Source of the DNA: Elusimicrobiota bacterium
Lineage (GTDB): Bacteria > Elusimicrobiota > Elusimicrobia > Elusimicrobiales > UBA9959
Length of the DNA stretch: 64,000 nt
Assembly: GCA_012517285.1 (NCBI GenBank)
Contig: JAAYVG010000035.1
Location: 7,647 to 71,646 of the forward strand
Direction of reading: 5' to 3'
Position 1 is the stretch's first letter. Each line of letters opens with the position of its first letter. Under the pieces are notes generated by a model, which did not search any database, had not been told where the DNA came from, and saw only the letters and a program-made list of their open reading frames with translations. The translations under genes were made by a program, and so were the position numbers. This document shows positions 20,487 to 60,370 of the stretch, piece by piece.

Positions 20487-20884
20487 AAGAGTCTAACAGT
20501 GGAGATTTTATAAATCAGAAACTGTATAAAAAGTTTAAAAAATTATATCCAAGCTGCAAGGTTTTTTTTAGTATTGTTAACAAATTCCATTAAGGTTTTT
20601 TACAAAATTGACAAAAAAAAGACGATCGTCTTTTTTTTGTCAATTTTTTTATACACACATTCCCATAGGAGAAAACTTAATTTTAATACTAATTTTAAAC
20701 TAAAAATTTACATTTTTGGGACGATCGTCTTTTTTTTGTCGATTTTTTTATAAGCCCAAAACAACCAAAGCGGTTACTTTTGGTTCTTTCCTAAACAACT
20801 AAATAACAAAATAACCAAATAACTATCCTGTCTGTCTTCATCTCGATGATTACATCTTGATGTTTAAGACTTTTTCAGTGCCCC
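20477..20884. repeat. Composite TIR-bounded element, copy C
   Basis: The left end GGATCACTGAAAGAGTCT (20477-20494) plus ~85 nt is about 90% identical to copy A. The right end is AGACTTTTTCAGTGCCCC (20867-20884). The interior carries a 44-bp palindrome, a partial twin-hairpin module and a CATCTTGATG module. Confidence 0.75.
20604..20653. terminator. Perfect 44-bp palindrome followed by a T-run, a possible bidirectional terminator
   Basis: AAAATTGACAAAAAAAAGACGA|TCGTCTTTTTTTTGTCAATTTT at 20604-20647 was checked base by base, then TTTTTA follows. It lies between convergent trmL and pyrD. Confidence 0.45.
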
Positions 20885-42039: not shown

Positions 42040-42245
42040 ACAATTTTATACACTACAACCCGAAGTAACCTCGTAGGTTACTTCGGGTTTGGGTAAATTT
42101 ATGATTATATTTTAATATTATTTTGTTGCTAACCAAAAGTAAGCTACGAGGTTACTTTTGGTTCTTTCCTAAACAACTAATTTTATCTGTTTACATCTTG
42201 ATGATTAAATAACCAAACAACTAAACAACCAGATAACTAACATGC
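42040..42245. repeat. Twin-hairpin element copy 2 (inverted) plus the right copy of the island-bounding repeat
   Basis: Hairpins CCCGAAGTAACC-TCGTA-GGTTACTTCGGG (42059-42087) and AACCAAAAGTAAGC-TACGA-GGTTACTTTTGGTT (42131-42163). ATCTGTTTACATCTTGATGATT lies at 42185-42206. Confidence 0.8.
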
Positions 42246-42275
42246 CACATTCATTGGTAAATTTGGCAATATTTA

Positions 42276-53164: not shown

Positions 53165-53330
53165 ATAAGATTATTCTATAAAAATAAATAAGAACATAAA
53201 AATTTCAGCCCTGATGAATAAAAATTCTTCTCACCTTTAAGACACCCAAAAACACCAATCAAAATAAGAATACACCCAAGAATAAACCGAGATAGGCAAA
53301 AAGTGATTTTTTCGCAAAAGGGTTTTATGA

Positions 53331-53359
53331 TTGACAATCTTAATGTTATATAGTATAAT
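53331..53359 (+). promoter_or_regulatory. Consensus sigma70 promoter driving the IS ORFs
   Basis: TTGACA at 53331-53336, an exact 17-nt spacer, TATAAT at 53354-53359, then AAGGAGG and the ATG at 53388. Confidence 0.7.
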
Positions 53360-53387
53360 AGTATTAAGATAAGAAAAGGAGGCGATT

Positions 53388-53786
53388 ATGGATATAGGCA
53401 AATATCGGCAGGAGTTAAGAGTATTGTTTGATGATGAGAGGGAATTAATAGAGACATTTTTAGTGATAAGGGGATTAGTTAAGGGTGGGATATACAAGAC
53501 GAAACTCAAGTGTGGCAAAAAGGGATGTAAATGTGAAAGAGGGGAATTACATGAAGTATGGATGCATTATCGGAGCGAGGGAGGTAAGGCAAAAACAAGG
53601 ACAATAAGGAAAGAAGAAGTCCAAGAGTATGAGCGATATACAAGGAACTACCAGAGGTACCGACAATCACGAGCGGAGTTAATAAAGCTACATAAGAAGC
53701 AAATAAGATTGATAGACCTTATAGAGGAAGGGTTGAGGAAGGAGAACAGTGGAATAGAGAAGAAACTTTTTAAGAAGAAGAGATAA
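53388..53786 (+). CDS. IS-associated small basic protein with a Cys-cluster (zinc-ribbon-like)
   Basis: A strong SD, KLKCGKKGCKCERGELHEVW, and an Arg/Lys-rich helical tail. It ends 12 nt upstream of the transposase gene. Confidence 0.65.
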   Translation: MDIGKYRQELRVLFDDERELIETFLVIRGLVKGGIYKTKLKCGKKGCKCERGELHEVWMHYRSEGGKAKTRTIRKEEVQEYERYTRNYQRYRQSRAELIKLHKKQIRLIDLIEEGLRKENSGIEKKLFKKKR

Positions 53787-53798
53787 AAAGGAAGAGGA

Positions 53799-55088
53799 AT
53801 GAAACAGATACTATACAAGACAATGCGGCACTTTTTTCCAGAATATCGGCAATGGTTAAGGGATATGAAAGATCCCCGAAAGAAGAATATGACGAGCTAT
53901 GAACTACCAGTGATGATATGGGTAGGGATATTGTTATTTTTATTAAAATTAGGTTCCAAAAGGCAGATTAACTATGAATTAGACACCGAAGCGATGATAA
54001 ATAACATAAAACTATTAAGCAGAGAAAAGTTAGAGCGTATTCCTTATGATGGGACACTGGAATACCTACTTGAACGGCTTGATCCAGTAGAACTCACAAG
54101 AATAAGGGAAAAAATGATAAACAGGTTAATCAGGAATAAAAGTTTTAGTAAGTGTAAGATTAACGGGAGTTACCCGATAGCAATAGATGGGAGTGGATAT
54201 TTAACATTTAAAGGTTATCACTGTCCACATTGTTTAAAAAAGAAGAAGAAAGGTAAGGTTCTATTTTATTACCATTCTATATTGGAAGCGAAAATAATAT
54301 CTAATGGGATGGCATTCAGTGTTGAGACAGAATTCATTGAGAATGAAAGTGAGGGAGTTTTGAAACAAGATTGTGAACTTAAAGCATTTTACAGGTTAAG
54401 TGAGAAACTAAAGAAAAAGTTTCCACAACTTGAGATATGTTTATTATTAGATAGTTTATATGCAAACAAACCAGTTATAGACATATGCAACAAAAACAAA
54501 TGGAAATATATAATAACATTCAAAGAGGGTTCTATGCCAGAGGTTTATAAGGAATATGAAACCCTAAAAAAGATCAATCCTGATAAACATATTGAATACA
54601 ATAACAATGGGATAAAACAAAAGTTTTATTGGGCAGATAATGTATTACAATATATTGGCAGCTTAGATGTAAATGTAATAGAATGTATTGAAATGAAAGG
54701 GAACCAGCAAAAAAGATTTGTATGGCTTACAAACTTTAGTGTTGATAAATATAGTGTTAAAGATATAGCAAAAGGAGGTAGACTACGATGGAAGATTGAG
54801 AATGAAGGATTTAATGCACAAAAAAACTGGGGATACAATCTGGAACACCCTTACAGTAAACACATTGTTGCGTTAAAGAACTTTTACCTTCTTTTGCAAA
54901 TTGCTCACATTATCAATCAACTGATGGAAAATGGCTCCCTGCTCATGGAAGAAATCAAAAAGTCATTTGGCAGTATTAAGAATTTTACAAAAAGACTACT
55001 TGAGTCTTTAAGAACTTCTGTATTTGATATGACAGAAATTCAAATGATGGACACTTTGAAATTCCAAATACGCCTTCGTGGTCCTTAG
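53799..55088 (+). CDS. DDE transposase (IS4/IS5-superfamily-like)
   Basis: Candidate catalytic triad regions are PIAIDGSGY, LLLDSLYAN and GRLRWKIENEGFNAQKN (the RWxIEN block is typical of DDE_Tnp_1-type enzymes). Confidence 0.8.
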   Translation: MKQILYKTMRHFFPEYRQWLRDMKDPRKKNMTSYELPVMIWVGILLFLLKLGSKRQINYELDTEAMINNIKLLSREKLERIPYDGTLEYLLERLDPVELTRIREKMINRLIRNKSFSKCKINGSYPIAIDGSGYLTFKGYHCPHCLKKKKKGKVLFYYHSILEAKIISNGMAFSVETEFIENESEGVLKQDCELKAFYRLSEKLKKKFPQLEICLLLDSLYANKPVIDICNKNKWKYIITFKEGSMPEVYKEYETLKKINPDKHIEYNNNGIKQKFYWADNVLQYIGSLDVNVIECIEMKGNQQKRFVWLTNFSVDKYSVKDIAKGGRLRWKIENEGFNAQKNWGYNLEHPYSKHIVALKNFYLLLQIAHIINQLMENGSLLMEEIKKSFGSIKNFTKRLLESLRTSVFDMTEIQMMDTLKFQIRLRGP

Positions 55089-55354
55089 AAAATGCTATTA
55101 GGGTGTTCCAGAGTATCCCCAAAAACATTTTATTATAGGATATTTTATAAAATCCTGAGGTTTTTTTACATCAAAAATTTAACTGCAAAAATTCTTCCCT
55201 GTTATACAATTTTTCTCCATTTATAAAAAAATTATTCATCACCGCTGTAAAAATTTATAATCAATTTCCAAGTTATAAAAAAAATTGTATAATTAAAAGT
55301 GAAGAGAGACGGTTGTGGTAGCTATAATATTAATATGGCTGATGAATAGTAATT

Positions 55355-55477
55355 ACTGAGGGTCAGGTCAGTGCCCAATACCTGTCTGCAGTAGGAAGTA
55401 GGCAGGGACGGAAATAAGGAATTACCTTAATTCTGTCTTCTGATTTCTGTCCTCTGACCGCTGACTTCTGTCTTATT
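55355..55477 (+). repeat. Heptad-periodic CAGA/TCTG hairpin leader element, copy upstream of buk
   Basis: TCTG or GCTG occurs at 55432, 55439, 55446, 55453, 55460 and 55467, an exact 7-nt phase. The 3' 57 nt differ at only 3 positions from 58302-58360. The element ends directly at GGAGG (55478-55482). Confidence 0.8.
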
Positions 55478-55486
55478 GGAGGCGTT

Positions 55487-56605
55487 ATGAGCAATTATGG
55501 AATACTTGTTATAAACCCCGGTTCTACAAGCGATGAGGTCAGTTTTTTTAAAGGAAGGAAGCTTGTATTTCATAAGGTTGTCAGATATGCTCAGGATGAT
55601 TTAAAGCCATTTGAAAATCAGAAGATAACTGCTCAGTTTGATATGAGAAAGAATATTGTTATGGAATCGCTTAAAGAAAATAATATAGATTTATCTGAAA
55701 TAAATGCAGTTATAGGAAGGGGTGGAATGTTAAAACCAATAGAAAGTGGTACATATGAGGTAACCGATTTAATGTTAGAAGATTTGAAGACTTGTAAATG
55801 GGGAGATCATGCATCAAACTTAGGTGGATTAATAGCAAGGAGCATAGCAGATGAGATAAAGGTTAAGGCATTCATTGCTGATCCTGTTGTGGTTGATGAA
55901 ATGGATTCTATAGCAAGATATTCTGGTATGCCTGAAAATCCGAGGACATCCATATTTCATGCTCTAAACCAAAAAAGAGTTGCAAGGCATGCTGCAAGAC
56001 AGTTGGGAAAACCGTATGAAGAATCAAATTTAATAGTTATGCATGGTGGCGGAGGAGTATCAATAGGTGCTCACAAGAATGGAAGGGTTGTTGATGTTAA
56101 CAATGCTCTTGATGGTGAGGGGCCATTCACTCCGCAGAGAAGTGGTGGAGTTCCTGCAGGTGGACTTGCAAAGATGTGTTTTTCAGGGAAATACACTTAT
56201 GATGAAATCAAGCTTAAGATAAAAGGTAAGGGTGGACTTGTGGCTTATTTAGGAACGAGCGATATTGTTGCTATAAAAAAATATATAAAAACTGGTGAGG
56301 TTTCATCAGGGCTTAAACCAGAATTAGCTACGAGGGAAAAAGCAAAGGAAATACTCCTTGCTATGGCGTACCAGATTTCAAAGGAGATAGCCTCTGCTGC
56401 TGCTGTTTTTGAGGGTAAGGTTGATGCTATAGTTTTAACTGGTGGCATAGTTTATGATGATGAGTATATAGTTCCTGAGATTAAAAAGAGGGTTGGTTGG
56501 ATTGCACCCGTGATAGTTTATCCGGGTGGTGATGAGATGACGGCTTTGATGGTTGCATGTGAAAGTGCTTTAAAAAATCCTAAAAAAATAAAGGTCTATA
56601 ATTAG
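55487..56605 (+). CDS. buk: Butyrate (branched-chain fatty acid) kinase
   Basis: ILVINPGSTSDEV is the ASKHA N-terminal motif. The length is ~372 aa and it is adjacent to ptb. Confidence 0.88.
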   Translation: MSNYGILVINPGSTSDEVSFFKGRKLVFHKVVRYAQDDLKPFENQKITAQFDMRKNIVMESLKENNIDLSEINAVIGRGGMLKPIESGTYEVTDLMLEDLKTCKWGDHASNLGGLIARSIADEIKVKAFIADPVVVDEMDSIARYSGMPENPRTSIFHALNQKRVARHAARQLGKPYEESNLIVMHGGGGVSIGAHKNGRVVDVNNALDGEGPFTPQRSGGVPAGGLAKMCFSGKYTYDEIKLKIKGKGGLVAYLGTSDIVAIKKYIKTGEVSSGLKPELATREKAKEILLAMAYQISKEIASAAAVFEGKVDAIVLTGGIVYDDEYIVPEIKKRVGWIAPVIVYPGGDEMTALMVACESALKNPKKIKVYN

Positions 56606-56610
56606 GAGAT

Positions 56611-56716
56611 GGAAAACAGATGTCAGAAGTCAGAGGCCAGAATGGGGAATAAAAGGAGTTAAACTCTAATTCTTGTTGATTTATGGCTTCTGTTTTCTGA
56701 GATCTGACTTCTCTGA
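56611..56716 (+). repeat. Heptad-periodic CAGA/TCTG hairpin element, diverged copy between buk and ptb
   Basis: CAGA at 56617, 56624, 56631 and 56638. TCTG at 56689, 56696 and 56703, then 56712. It ends ...CTGACTTCTCTGAATGGAGGG. Confidence 0.75.
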
Positions 56717-56728
56717 ATGGAGGGCATT

Positions 56729-57664
56729 ATGATAAAGTTCAAAGATTATGATGAGCTTGTGAATATGGTCAGTGGTATGTCAAACAGGGTTATTGTCCCA
56801 GGGGCAAATAACACAGAAGTTCTTGAAGCTATGAGGATGGGAATAGATAAAAAAATTATTTCTGGTGGAACACTTATAGGACCAGAAGCAGATGTTAAGA
56901 AGTATCTTGATACGGTTGGCATTGACAAAAAATTTTTTGAAATAATAAATGAAAATGATATTCCGAACATGGCAAACATTGCTGTTGAGCTTATAAGGGA
57001 TGGGAAGGGTGATTTCCTTGTAAAGGGACTTATTGATACAAAGTACTATATGAAGGCGATTTTGAGAAAGGATATAGGTGCTGTTAAGGAGGGAGGATTA
57101 ATATCACACTTTGTCCTCTTTAAGCTTGATAATTATAATAAGTTTTTTGCACTTACCGATGCTGCTGTTGTTATTGAACCAACCCTTGAACAGAAGGTTC
57201 AGATCATTAATAATGCAGTTAGTGTATTTAAACTTTTAGGTGTTGATAAGCCAAAAATATCAATCCTATGCCCTGTTGAAAAACCAAATCCAAAGATACC
57301 AAGTACTATGGATGCTGTTGAGCTTATAAAAATGAATAAAGAGGGTAAAATTCAAGACTGTGTAATAGAAGGTCCATACGATGTTTATATAACATTCTCA
57401 AAGAAGCTGGCTATGGAAAAGGGAATAAAGGATGCGGTTGTGCCGGGTGATGTGGATCTCGTTGTTCTTGACGATCTTGATGCAGCAAATGCGATGTATA
57501 AAACTCTTTCATTTTTTGGTGCAGGATGTAGATCGGCAACAATACTTGCAGGTGCAAACTTTCCTGTTATACTTCCTTCAAGGACTGATTCACCTATGAC
57601 AAAGCTTTACTCAATAGCACTTGCTTCATATATGAGAGAGATTAAAAAAGAAAAGGTTAAATGA
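56729..57664 (+). CDS. ptb: Phosphate butyryltransferase / phosphotransacylase
   Basis: The architecture is PTA_PTB-family and the gene is linked to buk. The start at 56729 puts GGAGGG (56719-56724) 4 nt upstream (the other copies have GGAGG at the same 4-nt distance). The ORF-track start is 56717. Confidence 0.85.
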   Translation: MIKFKDYDELVNMVSGMSNRVIVPGANNTEVLEAMRMGIDKKIISGGTLIGPEADVKKYLDTVGIDKKFFEIINENDIPNMANIAVELIRDGKGDFLVKGLIDTKYYMKAILRKDIGAVKEGGLISHFVLFKLDNYNKFFALTDAAVVIEPTLEQKVQIINNAVSVFKLLGVDKPKISILCPVEKPNPKIPSTMDAVELIKMNKEGKIQDCVIEGPYDVYITFSKKLAMEKGIKDAVVPGDVDLVVLDDLDAANAMYKTLSFFGAGCRSATILAGANFPVILPSRTDSPMTKLYSIALASYMREIKKEKVK

Positions 57665-58230
57665 AGAAGATAAAAAGAATAGCTTTTACTGGTGGGCCAT
57701 CAGCTGGAAAGACTTCTATAATTGAAATAATTCAAAGAAAATATCCGTCATATTTTATATCTGTCCCTGAAGCAGCATCGATACTTTACAGCGGAGGATT
57801 TCCGAGGATAAAGGGTGATGATGCTATGAAGCATATTCAAAGAGCTATATACTTTACAATAAAGGAGCTTGAGGATATGTATGAAAAGCTTTATCCTGAC
57901 AAGATTCAGCTCTGTGATAGGGGAACGCTTGACGGGATAGCATACTGGCCAAAGGACTCTGATGTTGATTTTATAAAATCTGTTGGAACGAATATGAATG
58001 ATGAACTTGATAGATATGATATTCTCATTCATCTAAAATCTCCATCATCCCCTGAGTTATATAAGTTGTCATCTACAAGAAATGAGGGACATAAATTAGC
58101 TGTTGAGCTCGATAGAAAAACTCAGGATGCATGGTCATTGCACAAGAGGCGATTTATAATAGATGATGAAAAAGACTTTTTGATAAAGGTTGAAAAGGCT
58201 ATTAAAATAGTTGAAGAACAGCTGAATTAG
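57661..58230 (+). CDS. Small P-loop NTPase (AAA_28 / NadR-kinase-like)
   Basis: IAFTGGPSAGKTS is the Walker A motif. The protein has ~189 aa. There is an ATGA overlap with ptb. Confidence 0.65.
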   Translation: MKKIKRIAFTGGPSAGKTSIIEIIQRKYPSYFISVPEAASILYSGGFPRIKGDDAMKHIQRAIYFTIKELEDMYEKLYPDKIQLCDRGTLDGIAYWPKDSDVDFIKSVGTNMNDELDRYDILIHLKSPSSPELYKLSSTRNEGHKLAVELDRKTQDAWSLHKRRFIIDDEKDFLIKVEKAIKIVEEQLN

Positions 58231-58232
58231 TG

Positions 58233-58352
58233 GTTAGTGATTAGTGATAAGAAAACAGATGACAGAAGTCAGATGTCAGAAATCAGATAAATAGGGAATT
58301 TCCTTAAATTCTGTCTTCTGATTTCTGTCCTCTGACCGCTGACATCTGTCTT
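58233..58352 (+). repeat. Heptad-periodic CAGA/TCTG hairpin leader element, best-preserved copy
   Basis: There are eight heptads at 58234-58289 (TTAGTGA TTAGTGA TAAGAAA ACAGATG ACAGAAG TCAGATG TCAGAAA TCAGATA) and six at 58310-58351 (TCTGTCT TCTGATT TCTGTCC TCTGACC GCTGACA TCTGTCT). GGAGG follows at 58356-58360. Confidence 0.85.
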
Positions 58353-58364
58353 AATGGAGGAAAT

Positions 58365-58823
58365 ATGAATTTTTTAAAAAAAATTATTGGCAAGTTATCA
58401 GGACAGGGCGAGAGTGACAGCTCTGTTAAAACTGTTCAGGAATCATTAAAAAAAGAAGAAGAAAAAAAACAGCCAGAGATTCAAAAGGCTCAAAAGAAAG
58501 AAAAAACAGATGATGAAATAATTGCTGAGCTCAACAGCATTGTTCCCGAAATATTGACTCAGGCAAAAACCCCTGAGATGAGAAAAACTATAATAAGTAT
58601 TTACAGGAAGATGACTGAGGATGGCATTGATATAAACAATGAAAATGAGGTTCGAAAGTGGGCTAATAAAAATGCTCATCTTTTCCAAAATGATGATGCT
58701 CCAAAGATTGAAACATACAAAAGGGAAAAGCCAAAGATTGGTAGAAATGATCCATGCCCTTGTGGTAGCGGGAAAAAATATAAAAAGTGCTGTGGTGCAA
58801 AAGAACAAGCTAATTCTAAATGA
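58365..58823 (+). CDS. SEC-C metal-binding-domain protein
   Basis: The C-terminal [19 protein letters not shown] is identical at protein level to the SecA tail motif in this window. The rest is charged, helical and unrecognised. Confidence 0.75.
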
Positions 58824-60370
58824 ATATCGAAATAAATCCAGAGTTTAAAAAAGCGTTTGACATAATGGAGTATTCAAGCGATAATCTATTTTTGACGGGA
58901 AGGGCAGGCACAGGAAAATCAACGCTGTTAAACTATTTTAAAGCAAAAACATCTAAGAAAATTGTTGTGCTTGCACCAACAGGGGTTGCTGCTTTAAATG
59001 TTGGTGGACAAACCATACACTCATTCTTTCGCTTCAAACCAGACATAACAGAGGATAAGATTGAAAAACTTTCAGAGAGAGCATTGAAGATATATAAACA
59101 GTTGGATACAATAGTTATAGATGAGATATCAATGGTAAGGGCTGATCTGTTGGACTATATAGATATATTCCTAAGAAGGAATTTAGGTAAGAACAGAGCC
59201 TTTGCAGGAATACAGATGATATTTATTGGAGACTTATATCAGCTTCCTCCGGTTGTTAAAAAGGATGAGAAAGGGATATTCAATGAAAGATATAAATCTC
59301 ACTATTTTTTTGATGCCGATGTCTTTAAAAAGTTGAATTTTAGGTTTGTTGAGCTTGAAAAGGTTTACAGACAGAGCGATGAATGTTTTATAAATATACT
59401 CAACAAAATACGAAATAATACCATAGCTGATGATGAACTCTGTCTGTTGAATAAAAGAGCTAATAAGAGACCTGATGATGAAAAATATATGATATATCTT
59501 ACCCCACTTAACAGAACTGCTAAAGAGATAAATGAAAAAAAATTGAATGAGCTTAACACTGATATCCATATCTTTAATGCTATAACTGCTGGTAATTTTA
59601 AAGAAACAGATTTCCCGACAGATGAGGAGTTGAGGTTGGCCTGCGGAGCTCAGGTGATGCTTCTAAACAATGACAGCCGTGGGAGATGGGTTAACGGTAC
59701 GATTGGTATAATAGTAGATTTTGATATTGATGATGATGGAGAAGATGTAGTAGTTATTGAAAAGGAAGACGGCGATATCGTTTCAGTAAAACCACATAAA
59801 TGGGAGATGTTTAGATACACATATGATGAGAAGAAAAAAAAGATAGGAACTGAGGCAACTGGTTCATTTACACAGTTTCCATTAAGGCTTGCGTGGGCAA
59901 TAACAATACATAAAAGTCAGGGTAAAACATTTGATAAGGTTTTAATAGATATCAGCTCGGGGGTATTTGCTCATGGTCAGACATATGTCGCTCTCTCTCG
60001 ATGCAGAAGCCTTGAAGGAATGTATTTAAAGTCTCCTGTGAAAAAACAGCATATAATAATGGACAGAAGAATAATAAATTTTCTTACAGAGTACCAGTAT
60101 GACATATCTGAGAAAGAGACTCCACTTAATATCAAAACAGATATAATCAATAACGCTATAAAGAACGAAACCGAGCTTAAAATAACATATCTTAAAACAA
60201 ACGATGAGAAATCAATAAGGATTATAAGACCGATAGCATTTGAAACCATAAGCTTTGGTGGTAAAAAAATATATGGGCTTAAAGCATTCTGCTATAAAAG
60301 AAATGAGGAAAGGTTTTTTAAAATAGAAAGAATACTTGAAATAAATGAGATAAAGAGTAAAATATTGTGA
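58820..60370 (+). CDS. pif1: PIF1/RecD-type SF1B helicase with a C-terminal WYL-like domain
   Basis: The helicase motifs are [46 protein letters not shown] and YVALSRCRS. The tail ...[10 protein letters not shown]...[24 protein letters not shown] looks like WYL. Confidence 0.85.

Follow-up and report, generated by a model that had tools for sequence, protein, structure and literature searches.

Heptad-repeat hairpins in the buk-ptb operon of an Elusimicrobiota bacterium are copies of a dispersed, strain-variable intergenic repeat family

Small palindromic or modular repeats near gene starts, such as the Correia elements of Neisseria, the ERIC sequences of enterobacteria, the BOX elements of pneumococcus and the PeSL of T4-type phages, are co-transcribed and cleaved by RNase III or RNase E, or they serve as recombination joints between gene modules. 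REP sequences reportedly stabilise mRNA, as Newbury et al. are said to have found in 1987, and the cyanobacterial heptanucleotide repeats termed STRR were reportedly described by Mazel et al. in 1990. REP and REPIN are the classic dispersed extragenic palindromes (PMC3116915). Heptanucleotide units are the commonest long simple repeats in prokaryotes, and their periodicity is reportedly favoured by polymerase slippage, both according to Mrazek 2007 as summarised in PMC4679880. Repeats of TAACTGA have been found in forward orientation just before start codons in Beggiatoaceae, Cyanobacteria and Bacteroidetes (MacGregor 2015, PMC4679880). In the case of hmw1A of H. influenzae, a transcribed (ATCTTTC)n array forms one arm of a hairpin in the 5' untranslated region (UTR) that is processed by RNase III, and the hairpin structure is required for expression as well as for changes of the repeat number (PMC12721329). 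Here, hairpins made of 7-nt units (heptads) are described that stand before the genes of butyrate kinase (buk), phosphate butyryltransferase (ptb) and a SEC-C motif protein in a stretch of 64,000 nucleotides from an Elusimicrobiota bacterium (contig JAAYVG010000035.1; this whole stretch is referred to as the window). They belong to a dispersed, strictly intergenic family that is absent from related species, the loop of which is conserved while the arms are variable, and strains with identical flanking genes can have, at the same site, copies of another size, other copies altogether or inverted ones. It is probable that the three copies are REP/MITE-like intergenic palindromic repeats, driven by slippage and recombination and tolerated only between a stop codon and the Shine-Dalgarno (SD) sequence.

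The operon has the gene order buk, ptb, AAA_28 ATPase gene, SEC-C motif protein gene and a gene of a PIF1-type helicase with a WYL domain, and the hairpins, termed copies A, B and C, have the following places in it:

55265-55293, + strand: predicted sigma-70-like buk promoter, TTTCCA-17-TATAAT, 10 of 12 positions matching, kept in all strains
55360-55474, + strand: copy A, with outer CAG-type units (55360-55371), a nested mini-hairpin (55381-55406), the loop core AAATAAGGAATTACCTTAAT (55412-55431) and the CTG-type (Y) arm (55432-55474)
55478-55482, + strand: SD GGAGG of buk, 4 nt before ATG 55487
55487-56605, + strand: buk, butyrate kinase, 372 aa
56606-56716, + strand: copy B, which takes up the buk-ptb spacer from the buk stop onwards, with the CAG arm (56606-56642), a variant loop (AAGGAGTTAAACTCT, about 56643-56676) and the CTG arm (56677-56716)
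56719-56723, + strand: SD GGAGG of ptb, 5 nt before ATG 56729, retained in strain L001 despite a different element
56729-57664, + strand: ptb, phosphate butyryltransferase, 311 aa
57661-58230, + strand: AAA_28 ATPase gene, its stop TAG (58228-58230) within the first heptad of copy C
58227-58352, + strand: copy C, with outer TTAGTGR units (58227-58247), the CAG arm (58250-58288), the loop AAATAGGGAATTTCCTTAAAT (58289-58309) and the CTG arm (58310-58352)
58356-58360, + strand: SD GGAGG of the SEC-C gene, 4 nt before ATG 58365
58365-58823, + strand: SEC-C motif protein gene, 152 aa

All three copies are imperfect hairpins of the form (NNCAGAN)n - loop - (NTCTGNN)n, the 5' arm consisting of units such as GTCAGAA or GACAGAT and the 3' arm of complementary units such as TTCTGAC or TTCTGTC. 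The pattern TCTGAYNTCTGWC, which spans two heptads and was allowed one mismatch, has 16 matches in the window where 0.93 are expected, and 15 of them lie in the three copies. Tandem-repeat finding (TRF) gave periods of 7 and 14 at 55431-55457, 56617-56642, 58226-58288 and 58309-58335, and the copies thus contain heptanucleotide simple-sequence repeats in the usual sense, with tandem units in at least three to four copies and above chance. A lag scan at a threshold of 0.70 found no lag-7 periodicity beyond the three copies in the 64-kb window, and a stricter threshold detects nothing, as the units are only about 70% alike. As + strand RNA, A, B and C are predicted to fold into long hairpins of -47.8, -44.6 and -43.7 kcal/mol (z = -2.4, -4.8 and -4.6). 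A first-pass annotation of this DNA had already noticed that the regions 55425-55482 and 58302-58360, which include the 3' arms of A and C, differ at three positions only, and these are indeed a 1-nt indel (CCTTAA/CCTTAAA) and two T/A changes; the more diverged third copy that it saw in the buk-ptb spacer (56606-56716) is there as well and ends in CTGACTTCTCTGAATGGAGGG. Also its statement that the 5' arms of A and C differ was borne out, and this is partly accounted for by the nested second hairpin of A, which looks like a decayed GC-rich mini-hairpin.

The hairpins are not restricted to the buk operon. When a metagenome collection was searched with a pattern that combines the loop with two heptads (GGAATTNCCTTAA[N]TTCTGNYNTCTG), nine sites were found, all of them in one sample and on four contigs of 42-364 kb, and one of these sites is copy A. 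The window and the metagenome family loci together give 142 kb, which is part of the genome, and in this sample 25 arrays or hairpins were counted, none of them inside an open reading frame (ORF). Thirteen are in gaps between co-directional genes (++/--), six in divergent and four in convergent gaps, and the co-directional gaps, with an overall median of 14 nt, measure 111-433 nt where they contain an element. The family consensus is (GTCAGAA)n - AAATA[A/G]GGAATTTCCTTAAAT - (TCTGNYN)n. Its 21-nt loop (AAATAAGGAATTTCCTTAAAT) has 0-2 mismatches among the copies, whereas the arms vary in the number and type of units, with a median pairwise arm identity of 0.40 and with outer units that are frequently of the TCAGTGR/YCACTGA type. 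A conservation confined to the SD-proximal arm, as it had been deduced from A and C, is therefore not a property of the family, since the aligned copies have a conserved loop and variable arms. The orientation of the loop is random relative to the downstream gene. Several copies carry a GC-rich mini-hairpin (CCTGCCTGCCGAAGCCGCTTCGGCGCAGGCAGG) nested within the heptad arms, at the following sites:

L132, about 4960
L133, about 500 and about 6750
L135, about 2090
L136, about 2480
L137, about 6290
L140, about 6250
window, 55381-55406: degenerate look-alike in the 5' arm of copy A

How fast the elements change can be seen from closely related strains. Buk is 100% identical in five other assemblies, all of which have the same copy A except for one single-nucleotide polymorphism. 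Sites B and C differ in length and architecture between close strains, although the flanking genes are 99-100% identical. At site B, strains L001 and L003 have a different, shorter hairpin (AGTGAGC AGTGGGC ... GCTGAAC ACT), with TGGAGGGCATTATG retained. At site C, four architectures of 55-256 nt were found in four strains, all of them heptad-based and all retaining TCTTAATGGAGGxAATATG. Over ptb, AAA_28 and SEC-C (1,950 nt), strain L004 has 100% identity with the window, but its element at site C is 39 nt shorter, consists of other arm units and has the loop inverted. Because the last part of the AAA_28 gene is shared with the heptad array, the stop codon and the last 1-8 residues of this protein vary between the strains, with the C-termini EEQLN, EEQLNQ and EEQLKTVDSDQK (ending LKTVDSDQK). 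The overlaps are:

window, 58215-58230: AAA_28 3' end and heptads
L002, 12729-12765: AAA_28 3' end and heptads
L004, 2994-3012: AAA_28 3' end and heptads

Strain L002 and the window agree at 99.5% between the buk promoter and about position 56770, some 40 nt into ptb; the identity then falls to about 88% for the rest of ptb and for AAA_28, SEC-C and PIF1, and this drop marks a recombination breakpoint that lies about 55 nt downstream of copy B.

Recent spread or gene conversion had been offered as one explanation of the near-identity of the 3' arms of A and C, and this fits the family as a whole. The two arms match at 41 of 42 positions in register, whereas every other pair in the family reaches at most 0.81, and neighbouring copies can have one identical arm in common, as at locus L132, where two copies 200 nt apart have an identical 5' arm and loop and different 3' arms. 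Also the C-site copy of L002 has 25 nt of loop in common with A. Such patterns suggest that it is typical of the family for nearby copies to exchange half-elements, with joining at the loop, and this would be the simplest explanation of the identity of A and C. The element is a palindrome throughout, with the termini AAACAGA...TCTGTTT. A possible flanking duplication (ATGGA) was found at copy B only and at none of the other copies, and the only transposase in the window is of the DDE type, the insertion sequence (IS) ends of which (CAGCsSTGATGAATAA) are unrelated to the hairpin family.

The origin of the SD sequences can be addressed with relatives that have no elements. Six relative loci, the Buk of which is 80-83% identical, have the operon cupin-buk-ptb-AAA_28-SEC-C-PIF1 with junctions of 9-30 nt or with overlapping genes, and neither heptad arrays nor the loop motif were found in these loci (about 80 kb searched). 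The relatives nevertheless carry GGAGG-N4/5-ATG, the cupin-buk junction being GGAGG-N4-ATG, and their initiation contexts are AAGGAGGATTTATG before ptb and AAAGGAGGAAATATG before SEC-C; GGAGGAAATATG before the SEC-C gene is the same in the window and in the element-free relative L131. Since the element-free orthologous junctions carry the same SD, both this sequence and its distance from the start codon are a property of the genes and older than the elements. This contradicts the first idea that the element delivers the SD. Also the claim of one and the same register before all three genes needs a correction: it holds for buk and the SEC-C gene with 4 nt between SD and ATG, but not for ptb with 5 nt, where the start codon is ATG 56729 and not the earlier in-frame ATG at 56717, and the registers are thus similar and not identical. 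Judged from these junctions, the hairpins are lineage-specific additions to formerly compact gene borders.

It is most likely that the dispersed repeat is selfish or neutral. Slipped-strand mispairing of the 7-nt units would alter the arms, recombination or gene conversion would let copies swap halves, by which the near-identical 3' arms of A and C could have arisen, and recombination between the inverted arms would flip the loop. Copies would survive only where they are harmless, and this would place them directly against the stop codon upstream, with 3-10 nt left before the SD, in junctions that typically have a co-directional spacing of 14 nt. The promoter is predicted upstream of copy A, which puts A inside a predicted 5' UTR of about 185 nt, and the buk mRNA thus probably includes copy A. 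Co-transcribed copies would form stem-loops of 30-40 bp in the buk 5' UTR and in the buk-ptb and AAA_28-SEC-C spacers. The likeliest consequence, in analogy to REP sequences or to hmw1A, would be a double-stranded RNA target or a barrier for RNases; the stability of mRNA segments would then depend on it and translational coupling would be weaker, but it would not be a specific SD switch. A generic effect on mRNA processing, stability and coupling is probable. It is plausible, as the first-pass annotation proposed, that the structured spacer uncouples ptb from buk or that the RNA is processed there.

Heptad hairpins are also found far outside of this family. For this, loci from genome and viral collections were used (L006-L125 and L141-L353; the viral ones are IMG/VR contigs), the scans required CTG-containing units, and gene contexts were taken from simple ORF calls. 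The four-heptad pattern of three TCTGNYN units followed by TCTG has at least 120 matches in species-representative genomes and again at least 120 in viral contigs. Among the matches listed, to which also all the following counts refer, those from genomes spread over many phyla, with Acidobacteriota, Verrucomicrobiota, Planctomycetota, Bacteroidota, Cyanobacteria, Desulfobacterota, Omnitrophota, Patescibacteria and others. Where a CAG-phase and a CTG-phase array are complementary and within 150 nt of each other, the CAG arm is the 5' arm in 24 of 24 hairpins from genomes, in 19 of 19 from viral contigs, and in 39 of 43 hairpins with a looser pattern (CTG every 7 nt). Three of the four exceptions consist of the CTG arm of one hairpin and the CAG arm of the next, so that (CCTCCTG)n/(CAGGAGG)n at L349 722-801 is the only genuine one, and the CAG arm comes first in 82 of 83 hairpins overall. 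The polarity holds also for the non-purine-rich CAGTTGC/GCAACTG and thus follows CAG/CTG and not the purine content. Of 43 TCTG-pattern hairpins, 27 are followed by a gene start no more than 40 nt after a CTG arm, and 19 have the layout of stop codon, hairpin and start codon that is known from copies B and C. Unpaired arrays just after stop codons have the CAG orientation on the sense strand in 113 cases and the CTG orientation in 66 cases, and before start codons there are 52 CTG and 73 CAG arrays. An avoidance of purine-rich, SD-like arms near starts was considered as the cause of the polarity and is not supported, as there is no preference for CTG upstream of starts. No paper was found that describes the unit sequences or the CAG-first rule, with an incomplete coverage of the literature.

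In the viral contigs L288, L313, L330, L337 and L352, heptad hairpins stand between many consecutive genes. They have a conserved loop that is specific to the contig, such as GTAAAGGCAAAAAC, and often an SD and ATG directly after the hairpin; examples are (CAGTRAT)n...(ACTGRTY)n and (CAGCNNT)n...(AGCTGAN)n.

The view of the first-pass annotation that the elements may frame the SD is sustained by the family. In 16 of the 25 arrays, an SD and a long ORF follow within 30 nt after the CTG arm, with the Y arm ending 3-10 nt before GGAGG, and the copies are nearer to starts than with random placement within the same gaps (combined p = 0.016). The preferred reading is that growth or insertion of the element is limited by selection on the ribosome-binding site (RBS), which leaves a single-stranded spacer of 3-4 nt, but a target preference or a positive role may also be the cause. 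Several points weigh against a mere tolerance of neutral repeats. Of 15 cases measured, 11 have a distance of precisely 7 or 14 nt from the last CTG in phase to the beginning of the SD, and even in the roomy divergent gaps 5 of 6 copies adjoin an SD, the gene contexts in the census of the family being from simple ORF calls. The junction TCTTAATGGAGG-N4-ATG (TGTYTTAAT-GGAGG-N4-ATG) varies less among genes with an element than among the other genes, in a comparison with crude start calls and with duplicate loci included. This placement is tighter than the idea of tolerated space predicts and hints at a target preference or at selection. The near-universal CAG-first polarity is likewise not predicted by a purely neutral model, and in the parts of the genome that were sampled, no mobilising enzyme, no confirmed target-site duplication and no within-species empty site were found.

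One functional alternative is contingency tuning, in which the number or architecture of the heptads sets downstream expression via an RNase III-sensitive hairpin as in hmw1A, and in which the strain differences are adaptive. The complete restructuring of site C between strains with identical flanking DNA and the position of heptad simple-sequence repeats within a predicted 5' UTR or operon spacer agree with this, and there is the experimental precedent of a heptad-repeat hairpin with RNase III (PMC12721329). It is doubtful all the same, as the strains differ by wholesale replacement and inversion and not by plain changes of unit number, and as the neighbours of the family include many unrelated housekeeping genes, with convergent gaps being occupied as well.

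About as tentative is the broader idea that inverted heptad arrays of fixed polarity are a widespread functional gene-boundary element in bacteria and phages, positioned between a stop and the next start. Such elements could insulate cistrons, the hairpin hiding a C-rich array that is sensitive to Rho or RNases as soon as it is transcribed; they could provide RNase III or 5'-exonuclease-resistant mRNA ends just before the SD, and serve as recombination joints for the exchange of modules. The polarity in 82 of 83 listed hairpins, the excess of CAG arrays after stop codons (113 versus 66) and the stop-hairpin-start layout in diverse phyla and phages are compatible with this. A kinetic idea may fit the polarity as well as the stop-codon biases: with the partner arm being transcribed first, the C-rich CTG array would never exist as naked RNA. 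If the boundary function were real, the Elusimicrobiota copies would be working examples and not junk; the neutral or selfish repeat nevertheless remains the preferred reading for copies A to C.

It is less likely that the hairpins are dedicated translational leaders. In this case, the CTG arm would be anti-SD-like (CUUCU/CCUCU) and pair with GGAGG, the CAG arm would be the anti-anti-SD, and opening of the hairpin, for example by a ribosome that terminates at the upstream stop, would switch the downstream SD off or on. The Y arm is close to the SD in most copies, and in heptad phase, and in some variants a small hairpin is predicted between the last heptad and the SD, as in L004, where the SD has an unpaired probability of 0.02, and in L002 with UGUCUU/GAGGCA. 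Opening of the SD is calculated to cost 1.5-4.6 kcal/mol with elements and 0.7-1.9 kcal/mol in the element-free relatives, a difference of about 1-3 kcal/mol. With SD and AUG included in the folds, however, the SD of A, B and C is outside of the main stem and unpaired to 25-48%, and as the extra opening cost is modest, SD sequestration was rejected. Selection at the RNA level would favour folding of the sense strand, in which G-U pairs can be used. Of 15 copies for which the downstream gene is defined, however, only 9 fold better as the sense than as the antisense strand, and the two strands differ by 1.5 kcal/mol on average, which is no signal and leaves no consistent asymmetry. Own arms have a complementarity of 0.58 and arms of different copies one of 0.64; pairing thus results from the shared unit core and not from compensatory change. 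The arms vary freely between copies and strains without covariation, the loop has no fixed orientation to the gene, four copies are in convergent gaps without any SD, and the relatives have the same SD without elements. The suggestion that the arm is constrained to pair with the initiation region could not be upheld in view of these results. The predicted folds do not support a tuned, SD-occluding switch and are compatible with a generic long stem-loop.

Somewhat more improbable still is that the array binds a single-strand nucleic-acid-binding protein with a footprint of 7 nt (a cold-shock-domain protein, S1 or another one) and is masked by the complementary arm. The strict 7-nt period and the pyrimidine-rich CTG arm adjoining the SD would suit such a protein, and S1, Csp or CsrA have been proposed for the TAACTGA heptads, Csp binding one heptamer per protein (MacGregor 2015, PMC4679880); the variable unit positions are not conserved, though, and a 7-nt period is also what polymerase slippage reportedly favours, according to the summary of Mrazek 2007 in PMC4679880. 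That the hairpins are terminators or attenuators which split buk, ptb and the downstream genes into independent units is very improbable despite their length and stability and despite some family copies between convergent genes, since no U-tract follows the stems (which are followed by TTAATGGAGG), a terminator scan of the + strand at 55000-58500 was empty, SD and ATG come within 10-15 nt of the stem, and only chance-level promoter matches were found between the hairpins and the downstream genes. An Rfam 15 search of 54800-59000 with permissive E-values gave only chance matches to miRNA and snoRNA families, the sub-threshold match to miRNA precursors having 27.8 bits compared to a gathering score of 70, and with no match near a gathering score a known cis-regulatory RNA (riboswitch, leader or T-box) was discarded.

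As to the surroundings of the operon, the G+C content of the window is 34%, and the nearest Buk homologues carry an Elusimicrobiota annotation. The cluster buk-ptb-AAA_28-SEC-C-PIF1/WYL (window 55487-60370) is kept in several Elusimicrobiota relatives (L126-L131). The small cupin gene that precedes buk in relatives is missing in the species of the window, and buk there has a promoter region of its own. An IS at 53206-55247 directly adjoins the -35 box of the predicted buk promoter on its upstream side and encodes a DUF6788 protein (53388-53786) and a DDE_Tnp_1-type transposase (53799-55088). It has terminal inverted repeats (CAGCsSTGATGAATAA) and a 9-bp target duplication TAAAAATTT (flanking repeats at 53197-53205 and 55248-55256), and the site is empty of this IS in L001-L003. 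A second repeat family with 8-nt units (AAATAACN / TGGTTATN) and ATCATCGAGATG-type modules is present at 20755-20875 and 42145-42250 of the window, and a copy of it is inserted in the AAA_28-SEC-C spacer of L001 (12760-12880), beside the heptad hairpin.

For the buk/ptb operon, the comparison removes a tempting reading, as the hairpins are neither a conserved leader nor the source of the SD. What emerges instead is a repeat family in an uncultured phylum that is rebuilt faster than the flanking genes gain one substitution, and the copies of which mark a recombination junction and change the C-terminus of a neighbouring protein. The survey across phyla added an empirical rule, namely that the CAG arm is 5' of the CTG arm (82 of 83 among the matches listed). 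Should this polarity be functional, by protection from Rho or RNases or by insulation of the RBS, it would explain why heptanucleotides are the commonest long simple repeats of prokaryotes, and it would be a simple design rule for synthetic operon junctions.

Among the known systems, REP, BIME and REPIN have the same basic properties as the present family: they are dispersed, extragenic, imperfect palindromes in many copies (here 25 arrays in 142 kb), often within operons, they occur in all types of intergenic gaps, and they form mosaics and nested clusters. REPs are co-transcribed and act as local hairpin barriers to RNases, to which the present family, known from its sequence, can only be likened. 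In REPs the stem is conserved and the loop variable, whereas the present family has a conserved loop and stems built of arrayed 7-nt repeats, so that it is not of the REP type in this respect. With the heptanucleotide repeats of the LSSR/STRR type it has in common the tandem 7-nt units, the mostly intergenic position, the length polymorphism, the occurrence in many phyla and related cores (CAGT/ACTG, CTGA), but LSSR/STRR are described as direct arrays, and here two inverted arrays surround a conserved loop and are dispersed as a unit. Like the TAACTGA repeats, the elements have a CTGA core on the sense strand and end a few nucleotides before the starts of unrelated genes, and (TAACTGA)n corresponds to the unit CTGATAA, which is present among the CTG-type arms of the hairpins from the collections. 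The TAACTGA repeats of Beggiatoaceae, however, are direct repeats (with one inverted case) and mostly replace a recognisable SD, whereas here the arrays are inverted pairs, the complementary arm is added, and GGAGG is retained between array and ATG. The resemblance to hmw1A would be that of a transcribed heptad simple-sequence repeat: the promoter predicted upstream of copy A would place its heptads in a 5' UTR, and they are predicted to be the arms of a long hairpin; hmw1A differs in that it is a single virulence locus with a non-repetitive, G-rich partner arm and with the pyrimidine repeat arm at the 5' side, which is the opposite polarity, while the present family is dispersed, has two repetitive arms and has been recognised in genome data. 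To Correia, ERIC, BOX and PeSL elements there is no sequence relationship, and these have defined terminal inverted repeats or boxes and not heptad arrays; an intrastrand-triplex repeat (PMC4666352) was judged to be irrelevant. The present family thus joins features that are known one by one from other systems, namely heptad arrays, their arrangement as an inverted pair, a conserved loop and dispersal as a unit.

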